From Candidatus Heimdallarchaeota archaeon (GTDB lineage: Archaea; Asgardarchaeota; Heimdallarchaeia; Hodarchaeales; Hodarchaeaceae), in assembly GCA_048881705.1 (NCBI GenBank), contig JBHLSH010000008.1, forward strand, positions 10,728 through 74,727: a stretch of 64,000 nucleotides of DNA, in the 5' to 3' direction. This document shows, in pieces, positions 31,122 through 41,317 of the stretch. The position numbers and the translations under genes were made by a program. The notes under the pieces were generated by a model. The model saw only the letters and a list, made by a program, of their open reading frames with translations, did not search any database and was not told the origin of the DNA. The stretch's first letter is position 1; each line of letters starts with the position of its first letter.

Positions 31122-31535
31122 CTACTTGGGAATTTGGTCAATCATCTTTTGCGCAGTCTTGAGGTAGGATAAGGCATCCTGCATTTGAAGTTGAAAATAG
31201 GCGTGGTGAGAGACTGGACGAAAACGCTCTAGATACCTCATTTGAGCTTCAATTTGCTTCAACGCTTTTTCTGACCTTTTCTTCAAGGATTTTAACCGAG
31301 ATTTTTCCGCTTCTTGCTTAGCTAACTCAAAGAGTTCTTTAGCCCTAATAAGATCGAAATCAGCACGTTTCAAATATCCTTGAAGAAGTAGAAGTTCAAT
31401 ATGGGCTCTAGATAAAGATTCCTTTAAATTCAGGCGCTGCAACTCCCTCATAACGAACCTGATTTCCCTCTCGTAGTAAAGTAATTTATTCGTTATTCTC
31501 GCAGGGTTTAGGTAATCGGTTGCCATCTTACTCAC
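31122..31535 (-). CDS. Small all-helical TPR-like protein
   Basis: ELLLLQGYLKRADFDLIRAKELFELAKQEAEK resembles a TPR helix pair; clear promoter upstream. Confidence 0.55.
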   Translation of the reverse strand: MSKMATDYLNPARITNKLLYYEREIRFVMRELQRLNLKESLSRAHIELLLLQGYLKRADFDLIRAKELFELAKQEAEKSRLKSLKKRSEKALKQIEAQMRYLERFRPVSHHAYFQLQMQDALSYLKTAQKMIDQIPK

Positions 31536-31611
31536 TTTTCGTTTTTGTTTCTCTCATCTAACCCAAATTCTCAATTTTTGTCTCGTTATTTCTCTATTAT
31601 CTGAAGGGTTT

Positions 31612-31664
31612 TGTCGTTATAATTATAATCATGTTATATTAATAACGACATATAAAGTTTTCCG
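31612..31664 (-). promoter_or_regulatory. BRE/TATA promoter with GTTAT-N21-ATAAC inverted repeat, copy 1
   Basis: Minus strand GGAAAACTTTATATGTCGTTAT...TAATTATAACGACA; 9-bp arms TGTCGTTAT/ATAACGACA. Confidence 0.65.
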
Positions 31665-32123
31665 TTTCTTGATCGTAACCTAATCACTACGATTGAGTTT
31701 GTAAACACCTCCCAGGGCTAGAAAGTGGGAATACAAACATCATCGCAAATTTCAACGCCAATTATCTACCTTGGGGATTCTTAATGAGAAATTTACCTTT
31801 TTTAGAAAAGATCTAGGATCTAAGAGCTTTAAAAAGACCCTTTGCTTTCATCAAATACTGAGGATCTGATTCTCGAGGTTTACGGGTTGTATCCTTTTGA
31901 TGCGGATACTCCCTCCCCCAGTTATGGATTTTTGATCCCTAGAAAACCCGTTTTGAAGGCCTTCACTTCTTGAGGATTTCTCGGGGCGGTACCCTCTTGG
32001 TGGCTCCACCGCTGCGTTCTACTGATAAATCTGAATATAAATAATCCAAAACTCTATGTCCCTCTCGGGCAATGAGGAGGGAAGAGATACTCCTATTCGA
32101 GATACTGATAGGGGATCTGGAAG

Positions 32124-32609
32124 TCATCTGTCATTTCCACCCGTTGTTTCGGTTTGCGATGAGGCTGTTTTCTTTTCATGAGGTACGAATAGGCACATCT
32201 CCCGTACGTACCGAAGCACATCGAAATCAGTCAGAAATTGGCCATTGTAAACCGTATCTTGAATAAAACTTCCAATATGCTTGATTTCTAGGATTTCTCT
32301 GTAATCTCTGGTTTCTTTGATGTAATTCTTCCATCTTGCAATTTGATCTGCGAGAATCTGTCGTTCTTTAGCAACCTGTGATGCTATCATCTGAAAATTG
32401 TTTTCCTCAGCAATAGAATAGGCCCTTTGTAAAAGAATTTGGGCCTTGTTGATACCGAATTCGAAGAGAGCCAGCTTGGATTGGAGCATTAACGAGTCAG
32501 CTAGCAATTGAAAATAATACTGGGAGCGTGGATTGATTAAAGAAGATTCATGGAGGCAATCACCAGTTTCCCTAGGATCAATCAATGATAATTGATGATC
32601 TATAGTCAC
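32124..32609 (-). CDS. Small all-helical TPR-like protein
   Basis: LADSLMLQSKLALFEFGINKAQILLQRAYSIAEENN; distantly similar to 31122-31535; GTG start. Confidence 0.58.
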   Translation of the reverse strand: MTIDHQLSLIDPRETGDCLHESSLINPRSQYYFQLLADSLMLQSKLALFEFGINKAQILLQRAYSIAEENNFQMIASQVAKERQILADQIARWKNYIKETRDYREILEIKHIGSFIQDTVYNGQFLTDFDVLRYVREMCLFVPHEKKTASSQTETTGGNDR

Positions 32610-32782
32610 TTTACCAATCCAACTTTTTCTCTCTTTATTCCGTAAATCAATCTGTTTGCGCCCTTAACTCTTACAGGATAAAGGGAAAACTCTTCAATTG
32701 TACATACCTAACTGCATTGGGCTAAATCTGATGGAGTTTTCGTTTTTTATCTCGTCTTCCAGCTCAGATCGAACGAATTTGA

Positions 32783-32832
32783 TGTTATAATTATAAAGAT
32801 GATAAAGGGATAACACCATATAAAAGTTTCCA
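32783..32832 (-). promoter_or_regulatory. BRE/TATA promoter with GTTAT-N21-ATAAC, copy 2
   Basis: Minus strand GGAAACTTTTATATGGTGTTAT...TAATTATAACATC. Confidence 0.65.
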
Positions 32833-32995
32833 TTTTTCAAACCGCGCTAAAATCTCCCTTTTATGCACTAATTACCCTAATTATCCATTCGAATATAGAA
32901 AAACCAGGTCGCTTGATCATATTATATTTATAAGCGCCTTAAGATAATCAATCCAATTTTATTATCTCTAAATTCATCTTCTGGGCGAAAATTGT

Positions 32996-34123
32996 CTAAA
33001 AAGCAGTGTTCACGTTCAAAAACGGGAAGGAGTCATGGGCAATCTTGTTCAATGCATCATATTCTTCGGTTGAGAATCTTCCCTCTGACGCCGCCTTAAA
33101 CGCAGCAGCAAAACGCTTGGAGAAGATATCCAACGAATTGTTTAGGGCTTTTGACGTGGAAGACGTAACAATTATGCAGCTTATGCTCTCTTGCCGATTT
33201 ATCAAGAGAACCGAGTCTGCCAAATGGAGTTCATGGAGGCCCAAAGAGAGAGCATCAATGACTGCACTCATCCCTGGATAGAGAGTGTCTAAACCTTTAT
33301 CATCCTTTGCGATCAAGCTATACGTGAAAAGGGGTTTTTTTGTTCTTGTACTGATTACCACCAGCTGAGATGTCTTAAATGGCAGAATAAACAGGAGTTT
33401 AGATTCTGAGACAAAGGCAATCATAAATAAAATGGTTCCTAGTAAATCCAAGGTTTCTATAAGTCCAATATCCTGGGGAACTATTCGTGTGAGGATCATC
33501 AGTTGGGCCAAAAGATGACAAACTGCACCAATCATAGCCATACTAACCGTTGCTTTCAAATCCTTCGTGGAGTATACATAAAGGCTCCCAGTAAATATAA
33601 GCAATAAAAGGGCCCTTAATATCCAAAAACCGATTTGAATGTATTGAAGTTCGATTGATACTGTCTTCGCTTGTACTCCTGGAAGTAATGCAAAAACCAC
33701 CATCAATGTGGCAAGAATTCCATAAACAATGATTTTGATAGGATCGTACGTTGTTCGTATTGCCGAATCCACGAAGACAACTCGGAATACAGTAAATCCA
33801 GTAACGCTGAAAAAACCAATAAAGCCAACAACAGCAGCCAAATTCATGGATACGACATTTCCCGTGGCTGTAGTTTTCATAAGCGGAATACCTATGTCAG
33901 TCATCAAAATATTTAGTGATAGACTATTGGGATCAATTGCCAACAATAATAACTGAAATCCGAATAGGAAAAGCCAGGCAAAAAGACCGAAAAAATCTAA
34001 TGAAAGCCAGAGGAATTGACGGTAGCCTGTCTTGAGCCATCTTCGAAATCCTACTGTTAGTATTATAGCTGAATTAAAAGCGTGGAATAAAGTGATCATA
34101 GAACCGACTAATAGGTCTTCCAA
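32996..34123 (-). CDS. 7TM membrane protein with C-terminal longin-like domain
   Basis: Seven hydrophobic segments, then LLFILPFKTSQLVVI..KPLFTY..DTLYPGMSAVIDAL..ELHL..VLLI..ISCIIVT..L..F..RF, a longin-like pattern by eye. Confidence 0.7.
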   Translation of the reverse strand: MEDLLVGSMITLFHAFNSAIILTVGFRRWLKTGYRQFLWLSLDFFGLFAWLFLFGFQLLLLAIDPNSLSLNILMTDIGIPLMKTTATGNVVSMNLAAVVGFIGFFSVTGFTVFRVVFVDSAIRTTYDPIKIIVYGILATLMVVFALLPGVQAKTVSIELQYIQIGFWILRALLLLIFTGSLYVYSTKDLKATVSMAMIGAVCHLLAQLMILTRIVPQDIGLIETLDLLGTILFMIAFVSESKLLFILPFKTSQLVVISTRTKKPLFTYSLIAKDDKGLDTLYPGMSAVIDALSLGLHELHLADSVLLINRQESISCIIVTSSTSKALNNSLDIFSKRFAAAFKAASEGRFSTEEYDALNKIAHDSFPFLNVNTAF

Positions 34124-34334
34124 TTTTCCAATCTCCTTACATTCGTATTTAGGTTCAATTCTGAGACAGAATTGCCTGTGTTTGGTGTTCTGGTTAGCTA
34201 TGGTTACGTAATTGAACCCCTCCTAAGCGGCAAAACGAATACTTTCCCCAATGATATCCACCGTGTGTTATACCAAATGTAAACATGCCATCAACTTAGA
34301 AAAGGAACAATTTACATACCCCACGATCTATTTG

Positions 34335-34385
34335 GGTGTTATAATTACACCGATGTAGTATGGATAACTGATATAAAAACTTACC
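34335..34385 (-). promoter_or_regulatory. BRE/TATA promoter with GTTAT-N21-ATAAC, copy 3
   Basis: Minus strand GGTAAGTTTTTATATCAGTTAT...TAATTATAACACC. Confidence 0.62.
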
Positions 34386-34415
34386 TCCTTCCTCGTATGG
34401 CAACGGTTTCTCTTA

Positions 34416-35543
34416 TCATATAACGGAATAAAGGGGAACAACTGGAAAAATTTCATGAACTATTTGATTCACGGCGCCATACTCCTCAGCTGAGAAGTCT
34501 GTCTTTGGTAATACGTCAAAGAGCGCTGCAAAACGTCTAGAGAAGATGTCCAAGGAATTTTTCATAGCTCTAGATGTGTCCGAAGTAACTATTATACAAC
34601 TTATCCCTTTTTGTCTATTTATGAGGAGAACTGCGTCTTCCAGGTGGAGTTCGTGAACGCCCGAGGAGAGAGCGTCCAAAACGGCAATCATACCTGGATA
34701 AAAGACATCTAAATGCTGATCTCTTTGCGCAGTCCAGCTATATGAAAAAAGTGGCTTTTTTGTGTCTGTGTTGATTACTACTAGTTGCGATGTCTTAAAT
34801 GGTAGAATAAACAGAAGTCTCGGTTCAGAGATAAAAGCAATCATAAAGAAGAAAGATCCAAGTAAATACGTGACTTCTACAAGCCCGATATTCAATGGTA
34901 GAAGTTGTGTTAAAATCATAATCTGGGCAAGGAGGTATGTAATGGCCCCCATCATTGCGATGCCGGCTTTAGTCTTTAAATCCTTTGTAGAGTTCATAAA
35001 GAGGTTCCCGGTATAAATGAGCAATAGAAGGGCTCTTAGTATCCAAAAACCGATTTGAATGTACTGGAGATAAATGGACACAGTTAGTGCTTCCACTCCA
35101 GGAAGTAGGGCGAAAACTACCATCAATGTGGCAATAATTCCATAAACGATGATCTTAATGGGATCATATGTTGTACGATGCGCGGAATCCACCAAAAGGA
35201 CTAGAAATATTGTAAATCCAGTGACGCTGAAGAAGCCTGCAAATCCTAGGACATCAGCGAGCCTCATGGAGACGAGCTCCCCCGTTACCGTGGTTTTCAT
35301 AAGAGGAATTCCTATATCGGTCATCAGGAAATTAATTGAGAGACCATTGGGATCTATTGTCACTAGTAGTAACTGCAAACCCACCAAAAAGAACCAGGCA
35401 AAAAGACCAAAAAAATCCAGAGAAAGTAACAGGAATTGCCGGTAGCGTGTGTCAAACCATCTTCTAAATCCAAAGAAAAGAATTATCAGTATTATAAAAG
35501 AGTGGAACAAAGTTATGCTGGAAATAAAAAGTAAATCTGCCAT
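34416..35543 (-). CDS. 7TM membrane protein with C-terminal longin-like domain, tandem paralog
   Basis: Colinear with 32996-34123. ATG at 35543 (MADLL versus MEDLL) gives the identical 1128-bp length. Confidence 0.7.
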   Translation of the reverse strand: MADLLFISSITLFHSFIILIILFFGFRRWFDTRYRQFLLLSLDFFGLFAWFFLVGLQLLLVTIDPNGLSINFLMTDIGIPLMKTTVTGELVSMRLADVLGFAGFFSVTGFTIFLVLLVDSAHRTTYDPIKIIVYGIIATLMVVFALLPGVEALTVSIYLQYIQIGFWILRALLLLIYTGNLFMNSTKDLKTKAGIAMMGAITYLLAQIMILTQLLPLNIGLVEVTYLLGSFFFMIAFISEPRLLFILPFKTSQLVVINTDTKKPLFSYSWTAQRDQHLDVFYPGMIAVLDALSSGVHELHLEDAVLLINRQKGISCIIVTSDTSRAMKNSLDIFSRRFAALFDVLPKTDFSAEEYGAVNQIVHEIFPVVPLYSVI

Positions 35544-35625
35544 CTTTTCCAATTCCCCAAACAATTAAGTTTCGGAATTTCTTTCTGAATTTGCAAAATT
35601 TTTTGGTGCAATTGTTTTAAAATTG

Positions 35626-36699
35626 TTACCGTGATACTCGTAATCTATCGAGAATATGATCTTGAATCATTTTACAGCTATTTTCATCAAGTGATTCAAC
35701 ATCTTTTAAGGCGGCAGTAGCAGTTTGTAACGACTCCATTATATCTCTTCTTCTTTTCTCGAATATTGGCTGTAAATCTTGATTGTATACCAATAAGAAT
35801 ACAATTGGTATCTGCATTAGGTTCTTTATAATACGAGGATCAACTGAGGACTTATCAATCAATTTCGTCCAATAGATTTCGAAAATCCAATTCTCACGAG
35901 TATTTTCCTTTCCTAGTATAGGAAATGGGCCGTATAGAGTATTCAGCTTGTCGGGCTGATACATTCGCCCGCTATAGGTTAAGCTTGATAGGATTTCGGA
36001 ATCATCTATCTTATCGGTTAGAAGGTCATTCTTCTGTTCGATCCTAATCCCCCGATTTTCATCAAATAATCCAATTGCTATCCCAAGTGGCAACTGCTCT
36101 CCTCCTTTTGCAGATATTCCTATCGGACCGGATTCCTGTCTTCTTCTATAAAATGCGGGAAGAAAGAGAACCAAGAATATTAGTCCTACGACAACCAATA
36201 TAACACCAATCACTACCATCAACGGAATTTCATGCTGAAATTCAACTTGAATGATGGCCTCACTGACAAGTCCTTCCGAACACTCTGCGGTAACTCGAAG
36301 CTGAACAATTCCATCGATAATAAACGGTAAATCCCAAGTGAATTTAGTACTACCTTCTACAGTTGCAATGAAATTCCAAACATGGCTTAAAGGCCCTGGT
36401 TCTTCTGCAAACCAAAAATAGTTGAGCGAATATGTGAACTCATGCCCTAGGGTATCGGCAGCAGCAATCCATTCAACACGTACGCTTTCAAAAAAATAAG
36501 TGATTTTTGACCCATTAATTGGCAATATAATGATGGGATCAGTTACGGTATGCGGTTCTTGTGCTATTTTTGGAGCAATCCTATAAGATGGTGAAATAAA
36601 GGATGTTGAAACAGGATCGGGTTGGGCAGCAAGGAATCCTGAATAGAGAATGATTGTCAGGATTATATTGGTTATAGTTAACAGAAGGATCCTGCGCAT
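35626..36699 (-). CDS. Type I membrane protein: signal peptide, Ig/FN3-like ectodomain, one TM, cytoplasmic uDENN/longin-like domain
   Basis: Signal MRRILLLTITNIILTIILYSGFLAA; beta-rich domain (EW..A.D.LGH..TYS..W..TWD..DG..LRVTAECSEGL); TM IPLMVVIGVILVVVGLIFLVLFLPAFYRRR; GIAIGLFDENRG, LYGPFP, DPRI. Confidence 0.68.
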   Translation of the reverse strand: MRRILLLTITNIILTIILYSGFLAAQPDPVSTSFISPSYRIAPKIAQEPHTVTDPIIILPINGSKITYFFESVRVEWIAAADTLGHEFTYSLNYFWFAEEPGPLSHVWNFIATVEGSTKFTWDLPFIIDGIVQLRVTAECSEGLVSEAIIQVEFQHEIPLMVVIGVILVVVGLIFLVLFLPAFYRRRQESGPIGISAKGGEQLPLGIAIGLFDENRGIRIEQKNDLLTDKIDDSEILSSLTYSGRMYQPDKLNTLYGPFPILGKENTRENWIFEIYWTKLIDKSSVDPRIIKNLMQIPIVFLLVYNQDLQPIFEKRRRDIMESLQTATAALKDVESLDENSCKMIQDHILDRLRVSR

Positions 36700-36724
36700 A
36701 CAGATCTCTCGATATCAGAATGGT

Positions 36725-37414
36725 CTATAAAAGTGATAAAAGATGGACTTCATTCTGAATAATGTCAATATCGCTTATAATCTCGTTGAAATCTACAAGT
36801 CTATCTCTCAATTTTTCAAGGTAGCTTGAAAAGACTTCCTTTCGACCGATTATTCGTGATTCAAAGTGTTTTGGATAGTGTATCAAGAAGATTGCAAGTG
36901 GATCGGTATTTTTAAAGGTTGTTTGTTTAGAAAATTTAAATCCGTAAGAAAAATAGTCGAAGGCAGGAAAGGATGAAGTAGATTGGCTAACGCTTCGATT
37001 CATATTTTGACTGTCTATGGGGAATGGCCCATATAACTGGTCAGTCTTCCCCTGTAAATAAAACACAGCACTATATTCCAATAGGCTCTTGATGTAATGA
37101 TCAGGAAAATTACACCGTTCACTTTTGGCTAGAAGCTTCATTCTATCATTCATGAGAACTCCAAAAGCGATTCCTATTTCCATCACTTTTTGGTGCGTTT
37201 CAGATTGGATAGCGTCCGTTTGCTGTATTTTTGAGTTAAGCATAAACTGGTAGAATATAATTGGCGTAGACCCCATTAAAACCAGAAGAATTATCCATGA
37301 AAATGATTCTAGCGTCGCCTCGTCGAAAATCATGAGACCATGCAAAATTGCAATCAGAATGATAATCGCTGTAGCAGAACCAATAATCAATACGTATAGA
37401 GGTGGCCTTTCCAT
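36725..37414 (-). CDS. Two-TM membrane protein with the same cytoplasmic domain as 35626-36699
   Basis: Two N-terminal TMs; GIAFG, SLLEYS, LYGPFPI, PLAIFLIHY align with the neighbour. Confidence 0.68.
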   Translation of the reverse strand: MERPPLYVLIIGSATAIIILIAILHGLMIFDEATLESFSWIILLVLMGSTPIIFYQFMLNSKIQQTDAIQSETHQKVMEIGIAFGVLMNDRMKLLAKSERCNFPDHYIKSLLEYSAVFYLQGKTDQLYGPFPIDSQNMNRSVSQSTSSFPAFDYFSYGFKFSKQTTFKNTDPLAIFLIHYPKHFESRIIGRKEVFSSYLEKLRDRLVDFNEIISDIDIIQNEVHLLSLL

Positions 37415-37558
37415 AACAATCTCCAGTGTAGGATAAGTTTGCCTCTTGGAAACACAATAAGAGCTTTTTCCTAATAAAATGAATTTAACATTTCGATCTT
37501 TTGTGATAACGAAAATTGGCTATATATTTATAACATCTAACAACCCCGTTCGATAATA

Positions 37559-38680
37559 ATGGTCGCTCTCCCACAGGATCTCAAAGATTCCATTCCCTTT
37601 GAACCTATGATAGAAGATCTTTATGGAGAACACGTTAACGAGCAACATGCTCGAATACTCGCCGTCATGTTTAAACTTGGAGGGTACACCACTCTAAATA
37701 CTCTACCTGGAATTTTAAAAATCAAACAGCCAACAGTTAGCATACGGGTTGACGAACTCGTTAAGATGGGGCTAATAAGAAAAAACACCGAATTAATGCC
37801 AATGTCTATCGTCCTGCTTTTATCCCCCGAGGCGTTACGTCGGAAAAATCAGGATCGAATTCAGAAAGTTCGTTATGCATCGGAATTCCTTCTAAAGATT
37901 TCCGAAGTGGAAGAAAAGACCCCGAGTGGAGAATTAATACAAAGGGCACTAGACATACTATTCCCAAGGGAAAAAGAAGTAGCTGCGATCCTTGCACGAT
38001 CGTATATATCTCCCGAGGAATTGATTGAGTATCATGATTCACCGGATATGGTCTCAGCGTATATTCACCTCTTTACTCAGAAGCGGAAAAAACCCCTTAT
38101 CCGGTTTTCCAGACCTGCACTTCCTCTAAACCTTTGCGTGAAAAGCAGGCTTAGCTATCATGAAGCCTTGCATGAGTATTACGATTTTCTGATTGATGAC
38201 CTAGCAAATTATTTCTTGGAAGAACACGTATCAGTCATACCACACCAATTGTTGCGATTTCCTTCTGAAATTAAGAATAGGATTGACACATGTTTGAAGC
38301 ATTATCAGGAGATCCGAATAATAGACAATAACGTGTTTAAATCAAAAGATGGAAAGATGGGTATCGTAGATCTAGTTGTTAGCTCAGAAAGTTTTAAGAA
38401 GCCCTCTTCTTCAGGGGATAACCATGTGGTCAAGGTCATTTCCCAAGAAAAGCACAAACGAGAATTCGATGGCGAAAAAGCATTCAGTTTTCGGTATGTC
38501 CAATTGGTTGACGAGGTCAGCCGCGATTATACGACACGTGACTTCTTAATTTTTGGACAACACGGTTGTTTGGTAATACCTTCCCGAGAAAACATTGTGG
38601 CTTATTACAACATTACGCCGTCTTTTACTGACACCATATCAGAGATATTTGAAAAATATTGGAGTTCCGAAAATGCTTAG
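37559..38680 (+). CDS. TrmB-like transcriptional regulator
   Basis: N-terminal wHTH (KIKQPTVSIRVDELVKMGLIRK); C-terminal PLD-like effector pattern (IRIIDN..DFLIF..CLVI..FEKYW). Confidence 0.65.
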   Translation: MVALPQDLKDSIPFEPMIEDLYGEHVNEQHARILAVMFKLGGYTTLNTLPGILKIKQPTVSIRVDELVKMGLIRKNTELMPMSIVLLLSPEALRRKNQDRIQKVRYASEFLLKISEVEEKTPSGELIQRALDILFPREKEVAAILARSYISPEELIEYHDSPDMVSAYIHLFTQKRKKPLIRFSRPALPLNLCVKSRLSYHEALHEYYDFLIDDLANYFLEEHVSVIPHQLLRFPSEIKNRIDTCLKHYQEIRIIDNNVFKSKDGKMGIVDLVVSSESFKKPSSSGDNHVVKVISQEKHKREFDGEKAFSFRYVQLVDEVSRDYTTRDFLIFGQHGCLVIPSRENIVAYYNITPSFTDTISEIFEKYWSSENA

Positions 38681-39260
38681 AGATTTTTTACGAATTATAA
38701 AAGGATTTGTACTCTTTATAGGACCTACTCAAGCAGGCAAAACATCTATCCTCAGACGTTTGGTTACGGGCAAATTCGAAGATCCTGAGCCTACACTTGG
38801 ATTTCGTGAGGAAAATATCGCAAAAGTTAGAGTTATAGAGATTGGAGGTCAATTGGAATTCAAAAAACATTGGGGAACGGCCATTGAACAGAAACCAGTC
38901 TGGATATTTTACGTGGTAGATATCACCAGACATGATGAATTTGGGGAATTCGAAGAATTTGTGGCGAAGCTTGAAGCAGTTGATTCTGGAATACGTAAAA
39001 AAATCACTCTGGTATTAAACAAGGTTGACAAACTAGAAGGGGTTACAAAAACCGTACCACCATCAAATTCAATCACATGTAGTGCAAAAACAGGTGAAGG
39101 TATGATAGACCTGCTTGAGGAGGTAGCAAGTAATAAAGATGCGATAGCATCAGATACAAGCGATCTTGGTACTGTTACTACTGAAGAAGTTTCCTCAAAT
39201 GATCAAAAAGGGGAAACTGATACCGAGACACTTCTTAATGAATACAAAGATAAGTTTTAA
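38673..39260 (+). CDS. Arf-like small GTPase (Ras superfamily)
   Basis: G1 GPTQAGKT, G2 PTLGF, G3 EIGGQ..W, G4 NKVD, G5 CSAK. ATG at 38673 overlaps the upstream stop by 8 nt (track start 38595). Confidence 0.88.
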   Translation: MLRDFLRIIKGFVLFIGPTQAGKTSILRRLVTGKFEDPEPTLGFREENIAKVRVIEIGGQLEFKKHWGTAIEQKPVWIFYVVDITRHDEFGEFEEFVAKLEAVDSGIRKKITLVLNKVDKLEGVTKTVPPSNSITCSAKTGEGMIDLLEEVASNKDAIASDTSDLGTVTTEEVSSNDQKGETDTETLLNEYKDKF

Positions 39261-39293: not shown

Positions 39294-39722
39294 CTAGGAT
39301 TTGTACAGATAGGCTTGTTTTAACCAATCCAGCAATTGTTTGTCAATTTCCTCTTGAGTTTCAATCATAACGACATGTACGATCGTCCCATTCATTTTTG
39401 CCGCTTTATAGATCCTCGGATGCGTAATCCGATCTGGTAATTTGAACTCGACCTTTATTTTATCCTTCAGAATGAAAATCATGCCAAATTGTGCACGCGC
39501 ACTCATATTGATTGCAAATGAAATAGCATCAAACCGAACGGGGAGTTCTGCCACCAGCTGATCCTTTAAACTCTGATATAATAGTTTTACCTTCTCGGAT
39601 TTTCCTTTGAGATGATCCCGCGGTTTTATCTTAGTACAAGTGTGGGATTGGTTTTTCCTAGCAAACTGCCTTTTGCATTTCTTGCATGTCCAAAGGTTAA
39701 TAGCCAATTCCAGACATCTCAT
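39294..39722 (-). CDS. DUF5655-like protein with N-terminal Zn knuckle
   Basis: WTCKKCKRQF..NQSHTC; IETQEEIDKQLLDWLKQAY. Confidence 0.75.
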   Translation of the reverse strand: MRCLELAINLWTCKKCKRQFARKNQSHTCTKIKPRDHLKGKSEKVKLLYQSLKDQLVAELPVRFDAISFAINMSARAQFGMIFILKDKIKVEFKLPDRITHPRIYKAAKMNGTIVHVVMIETQEEIDKQLLDWLKQAYLYKS

Positions 39723-39769
39723 TATGTTTGATACAGGATATTACAGATGGTTAGTCCCCAGAATAGATG

Positions 39770-41203
39770 CTAACTATTCCTGAGTTTATAATTGACTTTG
39801 TGCATCAAATGGCGCTCGTAATCAAACGTAATTTCGCCATTCGCATGAAAAGTGAATTCGACATCCATCGTACCATAAGGATTAACAACGTGGAATTTGT
39901 GCGGAGTGCTTGCCTCAGAGGATGGAATCAAAGGGAATGAGAATTTTTCAATGAGTTCTCCTTCAAGATATAGCAGGCCTGCTTTCTCTACAATTTCCAT
40001 TTTTACGGTTTTCTTGTAAGCTTCATATTTCCCTACGATCTTCTCAAAAAAATCCCTGCGTTCGATAAACGGTAGTTCCTTATCAGGTTCTTTTCCCATT
40101 AGGAGGAGAAATGCATAGTCGATTAGATGGCGAGGAAGCCAACCGATATTGTAAAGCTGAGCGTAAGTCACCTCCAATTCGGGAATAAACCCAATATATC
40201 CTCCCGAGACTCCAGAAGAGCCGCTATGTGTGATCAATGTATATCCATGATAATTTTCTACAACTCCCCAGCCATAACCGTAAGCGCTTTTTCCACGGTG
40301 CAATAGAAAATTCCTACCTGTCAAATTAGTATTGTGAGGCTTTCGCATTTCCAGGATGAGATCTTCTTTAAGAATCTGGTTTCCATTAAACGACCCATTA
40401 TTGAGATGAAATAATAAGTAGTTTGTAAGTTCACGAACCGTTGAATTTAATCCTCCTGCTCCTGAATTAAATGGACCTGAGAGATGCGGTTTGGGTATTC
40501 GCTTGAGTTTCTTTTTTTGGGTTTCCTCCCCATATGCCCTGGAGGCATCTTTATCTTTTTCAAGCTCATCCCTAGAAAAAGTGCTTCGCTTCATGCCTAG
40601 TGGGGAGAAAATCTTCTCTCTCATATATTGCTCATACGACACCCCCGCGACTTTACTTATAATCTGGCTTAAAATCGTAAACCCACCATTAAAATAATAA
40701 AATTTCTTTCTTGGAGCATTAAGAACTTCTTTTTTTGCATCGTTCATGTGAAACCAAAAATCATCCCAATTCCCCATGGGAAAATTAGGAATACCGCCAA
40801 CAAATAACTCCTCATTGATAATAGGAAAAACATAATCGCTTAAAGAGGGGATCCCCGAGGCATGGCACATTAGATGATGAATCGTGATGGGATCCTCTTC
40901 AAAACCGATTGTCAGGGGAACATACTTCGAAATAGGGTCATAAATATTCAGTTTGCCCTCCTGATGTAATTGAAGGATGCCAACACAAGTCATGGACTTG
41001 GTAATGGACGCGATACCATATAAAGTATCGAGGGACGCAGGTTTTCCGCCCTGCCATTCACGTGAACCATAAGCACGTTCATAGAAAACTTCTTGCTTTT
41101 TTGTGATCAAAATCGACATACCAGGAACTTTATTATCGCGCATCAAGTGAACAGCTTCTCTATCGAATTTCCTCTTGAAATCTCTTATCTCTATTTCTTT
41201 CAT
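39770..41203 (-). CDS. Serine hydrolase, beta-lactamase class C/S12 family (Pab87-like peptidase)
   Basis: SxxK (ASITKS), YxN (YYFNGG), HSG, LMCHASG, MREKIFSPLGM, C-terminal extra domain. ATG at 41203 (track start 41233). Confidence 0.88.
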   Translation of the reverse strand: MKEIEIRDFKRKFDREAVHLMRDNKVPGMSILITKKQEVFYERAYGSREWQGGKPASLDTLYGIASITKSMTCVGILQLHQEGKLNIYDPISKYVPLTIGFEEDPITIHHLMCHASGIPSLSDYVFPIINEELFVGGIPNFPMGNWDDFWFHMNDAKKEVLNAPRKKFYYFNGGFTILSQIISKVAGVSYEQYMREKIFSPLGMKRSTFSRDELEKDKDASRAYGEETQKKKLKRIPKPHLSGPFNSGAGGLNSTVRELTNYLLFHLNNGSFNGNQILKEDLILEMRKPHNTNLTGRNFLLHRGKSAYGYGWGVVENYHGYTLITHSGSSGVSGGYIGFIPELEVTYAQLYNIGWLPRHLIDYAFLLLMGKEPDKELPFIERRDFFEKIVGKYEAYKKTVKMEIVEKAGLLYLEGELIEKFSFPLIPSSEASTPHKFHVVNPYGTMDVEFTFHANGEITFDYERHLMHKVNYKLRNS

Positions 41204-41317
41204 AAGGGCACCATTCTGGTTTAACGTGGTCATCTAGCTCTGCACTAGAGACTACTTCGTTTTATAAATAGTAAACGAGTAAATAGATATTAATCGTCTC
41301 GAATCGTGGAATTTCAA

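Follow-up and report, generated by a model that had tools for sequence, protein, structure and literature searches.

Longin domains bind Arf-family GTPases at membranes, as in SR-beta with the SRX longin of SR-alpha and Arf1 with the zeta and sigma longins of coats, and the uDENN part of DENN proteins is a longin too. Moreover, longin dimers act on small GTPases, among them Mon1-Ccz1, TRAPP, FLCN-FNIP and GATOR1 (reviewed in PMC10933270 and PMC12290439). In Asgard archaea an operon has been described that contains a roadblock (LAMTOR1-like) protein, a Rab-like GTPase and a DENN protein, and so have fusions of two-component domains with NPRL2-like longins (Liu et al., bioRxiv 10.1101/2020.10.19.343400). 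A mode of action resembling that of receptor-coupled G proteins has been proposed for the conservons (CvnA-D, MfpB-E), the G protein systems of Actinomycetota (PMC13621833, PMC11343762); the actinobacterial conservon DUF742 HTH protein (MfpC/CvnC) acts as a GEF and is not a proven transcription factor (PMC11343762). According to the initial annotation of the locus analysed here, no system with its gene set was known to have been described. For the exact set this agrees with the literature we searched, although the Asgard roadblock operon, the NPRL2-like longin fusions and the conservons are close analogues.

The locus lies in a window of 64,000 nt, the whole stretch of heimdallarchaeotal (Hodarchaeales-like) DNA that was analysed, and re-examination of the window bore out the gene order and coordinates first assigned (Table 1). 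The ORF of g4 extends to 35564, the likely true start being the ATG at 35543, which matches the start of its orthologues (MADLL). The ATG of g8 falls within the final codons of g7 (ATGCTTAG), giving an overlap of 8 nt. This overlap and the match of g8 to the Pfam Arf model (48.3 bits, cut-off 22.3) uphold the earlier proposal of an Arf-like GTPase translationally coupled to the gene of an HTH regulator.

Table 1. Features of the locus, numbered from the first nucleotide of the window. Transmembrane (TM) segments were counted by a simple hydropathy scan.
Feature	Position	Strand	Length	Description
g1	31122-31535	-	137 aa	TM-free; small helical or coiled-coil protein, accessory
Promoter-like element, copy 1	31602-31667			Upstream of g1; repeat families D2, D3, palindrome I5
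g2	32124-32609	-	161 aa	TM-free; small helical, TPR-like, accessory
Promoter-like element, copy 2	32770-32835			Upstream of g2
g3	32996-34123	-	375 aa	~7 TM; predicted C-terminal TRAPPC2/synbindin-like longin, residues 240-375 (nt 32999-33406)
Promoter-like element, copy 3	34324-34368			Upstream of g3
g4	34416-35543	-		~7 TM; predicted C-terminal TRAPPC2/synbindin-like longin (nt 34419-34826); g3 paralogue
g5	35626-36699	-	357 aa	Single-pass; predicted longin, residues 200-357 (nt 35629-36102)
g6	36725-37414	-	229 aa	Two-TM hairpin; predicted longin, residues ~73-228 (nt 36728-37201)
g6/g7 intergenic region	37415-37558		144 nt	Divergent
g7	37559-38680	+	373 aa	N-terminal MarR/HTH_24-type winged helix; divergent from g6
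g8	38673-39260	+	195 aa	Arf-like small GTPase

The conserved core of this locus comprises the winged-helix (wHTH) protein g7, the GTPase g8 and a longin of the g5/g6 type. In all 19 full-length copies of g7 a g8 orthologue lies directly 3′ of it, the two genes overlapping or being no more than ~10 nt apart, and in 15 of the 19 a g5/g6-type longin gene is found within 1.2 kb of the pair; for three of the other four the contig is too short to decide. The g7-g8 pair of genome G066 (71% complete) has no longin gene within 10 kb. g7 was found only in the order, where 15 of 23 relatives carry it (13/21 in family f1, 2/2 in family f2), and in none of 376 other Asgard genomes sampled. The g7 and longin genes are divergent in the window and in loci L001 and L004, and convergent in L028, L029, L046 and L055. 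The gene set recurs among relatives in these two orientations; the arrangement is far beyond chance, and the synteny check shows a neighbourhood that survives rearrangement. The input domains, by comparison, are swapped between loci. Two-TM, single-pass and 7TM proteins occur together, elsewhere there are NosD beta-helix proteins of 757-926 aa or TPR proteins of ~762 aa (cytoplasmic, with no TM segments), and a fusion of a longin to an IclR HTH was also found. Three genomes (G067, G074 and G076) have two triads apiece, with differing inputs. In the present genome the sole g7, the sole g8 orthologue and two strong g5/g6-type longins are all in this cluster. Outside the order, the g5/g6-type longin is N-terminal in proteins of ~350 aa. 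In families f7 and f4 the genes of these proteins immediately follow the gene of an Arf-like GTPase, and in family f20 the distance to such a GTPase gene is 1.8 kb; family f4 also has many g5/g6-type longin genes with no GTPase within 10 kb.

We hypothesise that the locus is one case of an order-specific three-part system, in which a longin membrane or scaffold input, a dedicated Arf-like GTPase switch and a winged-helix partner would together convert a signal into altered transcription, and we put the probability of this reading at roughly one half. Many "eukaryote-like" GTPases of Asgard archaea are unexplained, and for one of them the triad offers candidate partners that can be tested.

The six membrane and helical proteins had been taken as one module with the regulator and the GTPase; the g5/g6-type longins hold their place in the core, whereas the 7TM-longin proteins are confined to one module subtype and g1 and g2 are accessory. 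An orthologue of g1 was found solely in the closest relative, L001 (6e-59), and none in L004 or any further module locus. No g2 orthologue was present in L001 or L004; its relatives in the fetched loci were only proteins of 389-645 aa, encoded in two distant genomes close to 7TM-longin genes, and the three that were scanned (572-645 aa) are MalT-type TPR proteins. g1, g2 and g3 are each preceded by a repeated promoter-like element of ~60 nt, made up of TTTTATAT and an imperfect palindrome around GTTATAATTATAAC, whose core has 15 matches in the window against 4.3 expected, clustered at this locus. Upstream of g7, at a distance of 20-40 nt, lies a TATA-like block (GCTATATATTTATAAC) that is conserved in L001 and L004 and related to this element (inverted repeat I1). 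The repeated element may be just a TATA box.

g7 has its winged helix at residues ~28-80 and, at its C-terminus, a lineage-specific region of ~190 aa. It had initially been called TrmB-like; however, neither TrmB Pfam model matches it, by the tests run it is not a member of that family, and the HTH is of the MarR/HTH_24 type. The MarR_2 model matches 13 of 14 g7 family members (best 1.8e-6), g7 itself giving weak-to-moderate Pfam matches to MarR_2 and HTH_24. DNA binding by g7 is assumed from this MarR-type HTH. A somewhat unlikely alternative is that g7 instead serves as a co-regulator of the GTPase, such as an exchange factor, in a conservon-like G-protein system, with the longins as GAP or anchor and an effector elsewhere that need not be transcriptional. 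Conservons have a comparable list of parts, in that a sensor in the membrane is combined with a small GTPase, a roadblock-superfamily protein and a protein containing an HTH (PMC13621833, PMC13343842), and their HTH-containing DUF742 protein MfpC is a GEF (PMC11343762). Moreover, the g7/g8 gene pair, overlapping or nearly so in every copy, is as expected of a tight regulator-GTPase pair, and g7 carries a large conserved C-terminal region, the C-terminal half of the protein giving no recognisable fold or family in our searches. Against this, g7 has no match to DUF742, its best-conserved part is the wHTH (family alignment A8), which is of a DNA-binding type, and the cluster has no histidine-kinase-like or roadblock protein.

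g8 retains the P-loop, switch I Thr, Gln, NKxD and SAK, and is therefore probably an active switch. Further features of its sequence are an amphipathic N-terminal helix, ExxGQ replacing DxxGQ (E56 being invariant across 20 orthologues), NKVD as its NKxD, an acidic tail and a conserved C-terminal E[YF]xxKF. The nearest solved relatives in sequence are Arl1, Arf1, Arl3 and Sar1, the interswitch of g8 being 4 residues shorter. The genome encodes ~62-68 small GTPases, yet a single g8 orthologue, and the g8 orthogroup is distinct (277 bits, the next-best paralogue of the same genome scoring 58 bits). A GTPase-longin fusion is also encoded there. Residues 2-12 have a hydrophobic moment of 0.93, compared with 0.52 in human Arf1. 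Such a strongly amphipathic helix, as in membrane-binding Arf proteins, would suit a platform at the membrane with no signalling to genes, where longin proteins recruit g8 so that a patch of membrane is marked or remodelled for sorting, surface-protein handling or protrusions, much as SR-beta works with SRX or Arf with coat longins, and the g7 winged helix makes protein contacts. Binding of Asgard Arf-like proteins to membranes has been observed in both yeast and mammalian cells (PMC11914678, bioRxiv 10.1101/2024.02.28.582541).

The 7TM-longin proteins point the same way. g3 and g4 are 70% identical, and the modelled g3 tail (AF2 model m8e4a41049b9e; pLDDT 77.7, pTM 0.75) has the topology bb-a-bbb-a-a. 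Its top Foldseek matches are all longins (Fuzzy, TRAPP core, AP sigma, zeta-COP, Mon1-Ccz1), VIA gives Z 12.1 to sedlin and 12.0 to synbindin, and longin or roadblock folds make up the 50 matches listed. The model thus predicts a TRAPPC2/synbindin-like longin fold for the g3 tail and, by homology, that of g4, nearest to TRAPP, SNARE, coat-sigma and SRX longins. The 7TM part of g3 matched no Pfam or PDB family. Many further multi-pass membrane proteins of the genome terminate in this longin type, and across Asgard most 7TM-longin genes stand without g7 or g8. Nevertheless, we consider a purely membrane-site role unlikely, given that it leaves unexplained both a MarR-type wHTH protein invariably co-translated with the GTPase and the input variants that are TM-free cytoplasmic TPR proteins.

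g5 consists of an N-terminal hydrophobic segment, an outer domain of ~130 aa, a TM segment at ~162-180 and a cytoplasmic longin. Its outer domain had been described as Ig-like, a label that found no backing, as the Pfam family search gave no match. The g5 tail was modelled with greater confidence (AF2 model mc3e310ffb04c; pLDDT 91, pTM 0.86), and VIA places it closest to a Lokiarchaeota longin (8yqg_B, Z 12.4, rmsd 3.2, 138 aligned), followed by Lst4 (Z 11.7), chain H of the FLCN-FNIP2-Rag-Ragulator entry 6nzd (11.2), C9orf72-SMCR8 chain A (10.0) and SEA complex chain S (9.7). The g5 and g6 tails share ~24% identity and are alignable end to end, and the family profile of the g5/g6-type longin matches g6 at 1e-41. 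Both are therefore predicted, g6 by homology, to have a longin fold closest to the Loki longin, Lst4/FLCN, SMCR8-C9orf72 and Npr (Z 10-12), in keeping with the initial view that all four membrane proteins carry longin-like cytoplasmic alpha/beta domains. That these tails are instead PAS/GAF-kind small-molecule sensors beside a merely co-regulated GTPase is highly improbable: PAS/LOV domains are among the weaker Foldseek matches of the g5 tail (E 0.02-0.1) and phytochrome GAF-type domains reach Z 6.5-6.7, but the longin matches are far stronger (Z 10-12.4) and span the whole domain, nearly all of the 50 listed matches are longin or roadblock, the topology is bb-a-bbb-a(-a), and the family sits repeatedly beside Arf-like GTPases in several lineages. 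The g3/g4 and g5/g6 longins belong to two unrelated sequence families. Neither has sequence-level likeness to any solved or Pfam longin, and so catalytic residues cannot be transferred from known longins.

Returning to the three-part system, its input would be one or two membrane or scaffold proteins that join a variable part (an outer domain, beta-helix, TPR repeats or, here too, a 7TM bundle) to a constant cytoplasmic longin output of the g5/g6 type. The g5 and g6 tails may pair, like eukaryotic longin regulators, to form a membrane-bound platform that would bind g8 and set or read its nucleotide state, as GAP or GEF. The g5 longin bears a YGPFP motif and D88-x-R90; this D-x-R loop is conserved in g5-type tails and absent from g6, where the alignment has a 7-residue deletion, an asymmetry reminiscent of FLCN-FNIP and NPRL2-NPRL3, where the arginine finger is on one side only. 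Active g8 would be kept at the membrane by its N-terminal helix. g7, presumably produced in fixed proportion with g8 from the overlapping genes, would be membrane-held or freed for DNA according to the state of g8, so that a surface signal could change transcription. In this subtype g3 and g4, with the second, TRAPPC2-like longin type, may be additional inputs.

Of the known systems, the eukaryotic longin regulators share the predicted fold, the g5/g6 tail being nearest to longins of Lst4, the FLCN complex, SMCR8-C9orf72 and the SEA complex, and the g3/g4 tail to TRAPPC2/C4, with matches to Fuzzy and Mon1-Ccz1. As in the eukaryotic heterodimers there are two paralogous longin proteins, here encoded side by side, with a conserved Arg loop on one only, and their genes are linked to that of a small GTPase. 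However, the present proteins lack sequence-level similarity to those regulators, as well as the DENN core or other C-terminal domains; their longins are fused to membrane anchors, the set includes a wHTH protein, and the partner is a single-domain Arf-like GTPase rather than a Rag or Rab. The operon of Liu et al. likewise unites a roadblock/longin-superfamily protein and a small GTPase in a conserved neighbourhood, and their NPRL2-like fusions also use a longin as a module of prokaryote-style signalling proteins. In contrast to that operon, which is found in most Asgard, the present set is limited to one order; its GTPase is Arf-like instead of Rab-like, its longins are anchored in the membrane, a wHTH protein is the partner, and neither a roadblock nor a DENN protein is included. 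Conservons, too, are prokaryotic operons in which a small Ras-superfamily GTPase accompanies a membrane sensor, a member of the roadblock superfamily and a protein with an HTH, but none of the four families is common to both: here there is a longin rather than roadblock/MglB, an Arf-like rather than an MglA-like GTPase, and neither a histidine-kinase-like sensor nor DUF742. The resemblance is thus one of analogy, not homology. Lastly, the g3/g4 tail counts SRX and the coat sigma and zeta longins among its structural matches; the present locus has no SRP or coat components, and here the longin is itself the membrane-anchored partner.

The eight-gene cluster (g1-g8) lies on contig C8 of an Asgard genome of 3.96 Mb that is ~91% complete. 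The gene layout, membrane proteins and Arf-like GTPase described in the initial annotation were correct as judged from ORF coordinates, Pfam and a hydropathy scan, the last being the basis for the transmembrane (TM) topology of all cluster proteins. The 7TM proteins g3 and g4 are paralogues (70% identity). No Pfam match was found for the outer domain of the single-pass protein g5, previously labelled Ig-like. The genes for the winged helix-turn-helix (wHTH) protein g7 and the GTPase g8 overlap by 8 nt, the start codon of g8 falling within the final codons of g7, and because of this overlap the two products may form a stoichiometric pair. Beyond g8 (39294-41233) are genes for a DUF5655-like protein of 142 aa and then a serine-hydrolase-like protein of 487 aa; DUF5655 and amidohydrolase genes also come next downstream of the module in the closest relative (L001 4481-6215). 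As they are missing from other module loci, these genes are local neighbours only.

Coordinates of the cluster genes, the shared upstream element and longin-encoding genes in the host genome and in relatives
Feature	Location	Strand	Description
g1	31122-31535	minus	0 TM
g2	32124-32609	minus	0 TM
g3	32996-34123	minus	~7 TM
g4	34416-35543	minus	~7 TM
g5	35626-36699	minus	N-terminal hydrophobic segment + 1 TM
g6	36725-37414	minus	2 TM
g7	37559-38680	plus	0 TM; faces minus-strand g1-g6
g8	38673-39260	plus	0 TM
~60-nt element, g1 copy	31602-31667		
~60-nt element, g2 copy	32770-32835		
~60-nt element, g3 copy	34324-34368		
Longin-bearing neighbour of g7-g8	seven loci		two-TM + single-pass + 7TM set
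Longin-bearing neighbour of g7-g8			757-926 aa: NosD/beta-helix part, TM (hydropathy), longin; some fn3-/Ig-like matches
Longin-bearing neighbour of g7-g8			~762 aa, TPR repeats + longin
Longin-bearing neighbour of g7-g8			366-aa single-pass form
Longin-bearing neighbour of g7-g8	L060 8980-9687 (G061:C173)		235-aa longin-IclR HTH fusion, 1 kb from g7-g8
Arf-like GTPase gene, then 350-aa longin protein	L077 9423-11063		
Arf-like GTPase gene, then 350-aa longin protein	L081 4580-6218		
Arf-like GTPase gene, then 350-aa longin protein	L082 1205-2846		
Arf-like GTPase gene, then 350-aa longin protein	L083 2516-4166		
TRAPPC2-like-longin membrane protein	C35:43-1722		host genome
TRAPPC2-like-longin membrane protein	C35:4906-6594		host genome
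TRAPPC2-like-longin membrane protein	C47:20968-22605		host genome
TRAPPC2-like-longin membrane protein	C6:28626-29735		host genome
TRAPPC2-like-longin membrane protein	C97:2336-3511		host genome
TRAPPC2-like-longin membrane protein	C110:1411-2541		host genome
TRAPPC2-like-longin membrane protein	C2:130374-131570		host genome
TRAPPC2-like-longin membrane protein	C51:9678-11138		host genome

All four membrane proteins (g3-g6) are predicted to end in a longin fold, in two distinct sequence families. Their cytoplasmic C-terminal domains (tails) were aligned as 39 sequences of g3/g4 type, collected by searching 400 Asgard genomes in six frames with a profile, and 40 of g5/g6 type, collected by profile from 1.84 billion representative proteins. 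The AlphaFold2 models of the g3 tail (pLDDT 77.7, pTM 0.75; DSSP E-E-H-E-E-E-H-H, that is bb-a-bbb-a-a) and the g5 tail (pLDDT 91.1, pTM 0.86; E-E-H-E-E-E-H-H-H, with two short additional helices) have the same core order, and both show the five-stranded antiparallel sheet and bb-a-bbb-a(-a) order of a longin; g4 and g6 were assigned by homology to these folded tails. Only longins matched the g3 tail, among them all 16 Foldseek matches at E<=1e-3. Fuzzy, subunits of the TRAPP core, AP sigma and mu, zeta-COP, Mon1-Ccz1, SRX and Sec22 were found by Foldseek, and VIA-align gave Z 12.1 for sedlin and 12.0 for synbindin (rmsd 3.0-3.2, 119-122 aligned). For the g5 tail the best VIA-align match was the longin of a Lokiarchaeota roadblock-longin protein (Z 12.4), followed by Lst4 (Z 11.7) and chain H of the FLCN-FNIP2-Rag-Ragulator entry 6nzd (Z 11.2), these three at rmsd 3.1-3.3 with 126-138 aligned; C9orf72-SMCR8 chain A (Z 10.0) and SEA complex chain S (Z 9.7) also matched.

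By sequence, the tails matched no Pfam family at E<=1, hence no curated longin family, and profiles of both types matched no longin among PDB sequences. The g5 and g6 tails align over their full length around a YGPFP motif (~24% identity), and hhalign found no relation between the g3/g4 and g5/g6 types. A profile of the 7TM bundle gave nothing meaningful against PDB sequences. DENN proteins have the order uDENN-DENN-dDENN, of which the uDENN part is longin-like. The tails had been described as longin- or uDENN-like, and the longin fold is borne out by AlphaFold2, Foldseek and VIA-align. A DENN core is absent: each tail is one domain (136-158 aa) that closes its protein, with no central DENN or dDENN domain and no Pfam DENN match; DENND1A and DENND10 match the tails solely via their longin part (VIA-align Z 7-8.5).

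On its sequence g8 is a member of the Arf family. Its best-scoring model was Pfam Arf PF00025 (48.3 bits, cut-off 22.3), Gtr1_RagA reached 17.9 bits, under that model's cut-off, and the nearest solved relatives among PDB sequences were Arl1, Arf1, Arl3, Sar1 and Arl8. The GxxxxGKT P-loop, switch I Thr, Gln, NKxD and SAK are kept. G3 reads IEIGGQ, with Glu replacing the DxxG Asp in 20/20 orthologues (canonical Arf, WDxGGQ), and compared with Arl1 the interswitch lacks four residues. The N-terminus is predicted to form a strong amphipathic helix (moment 0.93) and lacks Gly2, while the C-terminus carries a conserved E[YF]xxKF. Among the ~62-68 small GTPases of the host genome, g8 belongs to a distinct orthogroup (277 bits, compared with 58 for the next paralogue).

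The regulator g7 had been called TrmB-like, a label that neither half of the protein supports. The N-terminal TrmB HTH (PF01978) was unmatched in all 14 family members at E<=1, and a genome-wide six-frame search for the effector domain (PF11495) returned only a locus on contig C31. Instead the winged helix is of MarR/HTH_24 type, with matches in 13 of the 14 members (MarR_2, HTH_24 and MarR; best E 1.8e-6). The conserved C-terminal region had no match, the g7 profile gave nothing meaningful against PDB sequences, and hhalign related g7 neither to the g5/g6 longin nor to the soluble ~350-aa longin proteins described below. In the g7 tree shallow clades are well supported and track the type of input domain (TPR type 100/100), and the backbone is unsettled.

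To follow the neighbourhood we surveyed the surroundings of all g7 homologues from 83 genomes of the Heimdall-type class. A g8 orthologue directly follows g7 in 19/19 full-length copies, counts from relatives not being independent. For 15 of these copies a g5/g6-type longin is encoded no more than 1.2 kb away, in many cases separated from the GTPase gene by 2-70 nt. Of the remaining four, three sit on contigs of insufficient length to judge. The fourth (genome G066; L053, G066:C1:99000-118999) has a g7-g8 pair with no longin gene within 10 kb; its g7 is almost identical to that of the 7TM-type modules, pointing either to recent rearrangement or to an effect of the assembly. The set of two-TM, single-pass, 7TM, g7 and g8 genes has the same divergent layout in two metagenome-assembled relatives, and is convergent in four more genomes of the genus (forward g7 and g8 precede reverse-oriented 7TM, single-pass and two-TM genes). 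Elsewhere other longin-bearing proteins take the place of this set (see table), and three genomes hold two triads with differing inputs. The predicted conservation of the neighbourhood thus held, through both inversion and exchange of the input domain. The core consists of wHTH, GTPase and g5/g6-type longin, the 7TM-longin being confined to one subtype. Of the six genes originally placed beside g7-g8, the g5/g6 longin type belongs to this core; g1 and g2 do not and are accessory, since an orthologue of g1 occurs in the nearest relative only and g2 is a TPR-like fragment. In the 235-aa fusion at L060 the g5/g6-type longin is joined directly to a DNA-binding domain.

The families differ in distribution. 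In a sample of 400 Asgard genomes g7 is confined to the Hodarchaeales group (13/21 genomes of family f1, 2/2 of f2; 0/376 others), whether the whole protein or its C-terminal 190 aa was the query. We define two previously undescribed longin sequence families. The receptor-tail longin of g5/g6 type is present across most families of the class, in 70/82 of the genomes sampled (f1 21/21, f4 30/31, f7 11/12, but f6 2/12), and is patchy or absent outside it. In genomes beyond the order it is the N-terminal part of ~350-aa soluble proteins, whose genes lie directly downstream of an Arf-like GTPase gene in f7 and f4; in one f20 genome the two are separated by 1.8 kb, and in other f4 genomes no GTPase is near. 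The C-terminal half of these proteins has the motifs KIGIxG, LDGxxYFA and TKIP and a weak Arf1 match (E 0.19), suggesting a degenerate GTPase-like domain; their profile gave nothing meaningful against PDB sequences.

The second family, the 7TM-longin fusion, occurs in 191/400 Asgard genomes; tandem pairs are frequent, and most copies are not accompanied by g7 or g8. The g3 and g6 families had appeared very rare in word-based searches (5 and 2 relatives), a view overturned by profile searches. In f20, tandem 7TM-longin pairs abut a small GTPase of another family than g8 (L038 11222-11773, L044 9097-9657, L042 10357-11322), so that the fusion may be tied to GTPases there also. The closest relative has a third, solitary copy 44 kb from the module (L003, GCA_048882505.1 contig 6, 50346-71473), with histidine kinases and response regulators as neighbours and two Arf-like GTPases 6-8 kb off. 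Within the host genome, TRAPPC2-like longins stand at the end of many further proteins with 2, 5-7 or 11-12 TM segments by hydropathy (see table); the membrane-anchored longin is a general architecture of this genome, beyond the cluster. Moreover, a 317-aa protein (C35:31617-32570) fuses an Arf-like GTPase domain (11-125) to a TRAPPC2-like longin (171-287), a predicted 'Rosetta stone' link between such longins and small GTPases.

The same-strand gaps of the cluster that are free of ORFs are unusually long (31536-32123, 590 nt; 32610-32995, 386 nt; 34124-34415, 292 nt). No tRNA or Rfam family was found in the window, these gaps included. Lying 70-220 nt upstream of g1, g2 and g3 is a shared element of ~60 nt, TTTTATAT followed by an imperfect palindrome around GTTATAATTATAAC, and a related TATA-like block upstream of g7 (37515-37540) is kept in the relatives' loci L001 and L004. 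The element could be a common promoter, or a promoter with an operator. AT-rich sequence with TATA-like blocks precedes the g7 orthologues, so the palindrome motif may be simply a promoter rather than an operator for g7. If so, the leaders of g2 and g3 are long.

Linkage of the three genes, kept across inversion and exchange of the input domain, is strong evidence that the triad is one functional unit. The longin tails would be the GTPase-facing part, judging from how the constant domain folds and from what longin dimers are known to do. Our best model, to which we give a probability of about 0.5, is that g8 at the membrane has its state either set or read by a sensor-anchored longin platform, and in turn governs g7. 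FLCN-FNIP, NPRL2-NPRL3 and SMCR8-C9orf72 are longin GAP heterodimers with the arginine finger on one subunit (FLCN R164, NPRL2 R78). The genes for the paralogous g5 and g6 tails stand side by side in 7/7 7TM-type modules. R90, with D88, is kept in 35/40 members of the g5/g6 longin family, and the g6 subfamily lacks it through a 7-residue deletion; a D-x-R loop in g5-type but not g6-type tails recalls the one-sided finger of FLCN-FNIP and NPRL2-NPRL3. A complex prediction with four chains (g7, the tails of g5 and g6, and g8 as partner) did not discriminate, a control matching the test in score. The foremost rival is a system resembling the conservons, in which g7 would be a co-regulator of the GTPase in the manner of MfpC, a GEF that contains an HTH (PMC11343762). 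Against it, Pfam gave no HATPase, Robl_LC7 or DUF742 match in the eight cluster proteins or the g7 family. Another is that the platform marks a membrane site and is unconnected to transcription. That the tails are PAS-like ligand sensors is much less likely, as PAS and GAF domains score far below longins against the g5 tail in both Foldseek and VIA-align.

A bolder form of the longin-platform model, which we consider unlikely, is a transmembrane pathway of eukaryotic design in the Hodarchaeales group. Here surface or 7TM receptors would bring a longin regulator of their own. The tails of g5 and g6 would pair in FLCN-FNIP fashion, with an arginine finger on one side only, and the heterodimer would switch a dedicated membrane-binding Arf-like GTPase; the GTPase would free or capture a winged-helix DNA-binding protein and so alter transcription. 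If true, this pathway would be a prokaryotic precursor of small-GTPase signalling coupled to receptors, and the 7TM-longin fusions, present in about half of Asgard genomes, would represent a wider receptor class.

Asgard genomes encode dozens of small GTPases and >100 roadblock/longin families, with the pairings of regulator and GTPase mostly obscure, and the host lineage is reported as the closest to eukaryotes. With the triad, one Arf-like GTPase can be assigned likely longin partners and a likely output protein. Natural variants carrying three kinds of input domain offer mutual controls. Excising the tails gives a set of small, soluble parts, which makes binding, GTPase and DNA-binding assays feasible.

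In the literature searched we found no description of the triad gene set or of a 7TM-longin fusion. Tran et al. (PMC10933270) report for the cultured Asgard MK-D1 that GTPase genes generally lie outside operons with roadblock or longin genes, which makes matching regulator to GTPase hard, and papers on Asgard Arfs do not treat gene neighbours (bioRxiv 10.1101/2024.02.28.582541; PMC11914678). Among the arrangements reported by Liu et al. (bioRxiv 10.1101/2020.10.19.343400) are an Asgard operon in which roadblock, Rab-like GTPase and DENN proteins are encoded together, and NPRL2-like longins fused to two-component domains. The partner of FLCN-FNIP, NPRL2-NPRL3 and SMCR8-C9orf72 is a Rag-type GTPase with a C-terminal roadblock, whereas g8 is a single-domain protein of 195 aa. 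By logic the nearest prokaryotic analogue is the conservon (AGPS) set, which combines a histidine-kinase-like sensor, an MglB-type roadblock, a DUF742 protein and an MglA-like GTPase in one operon; it has no family in common with the triad, whose GTPase is Arf-like.
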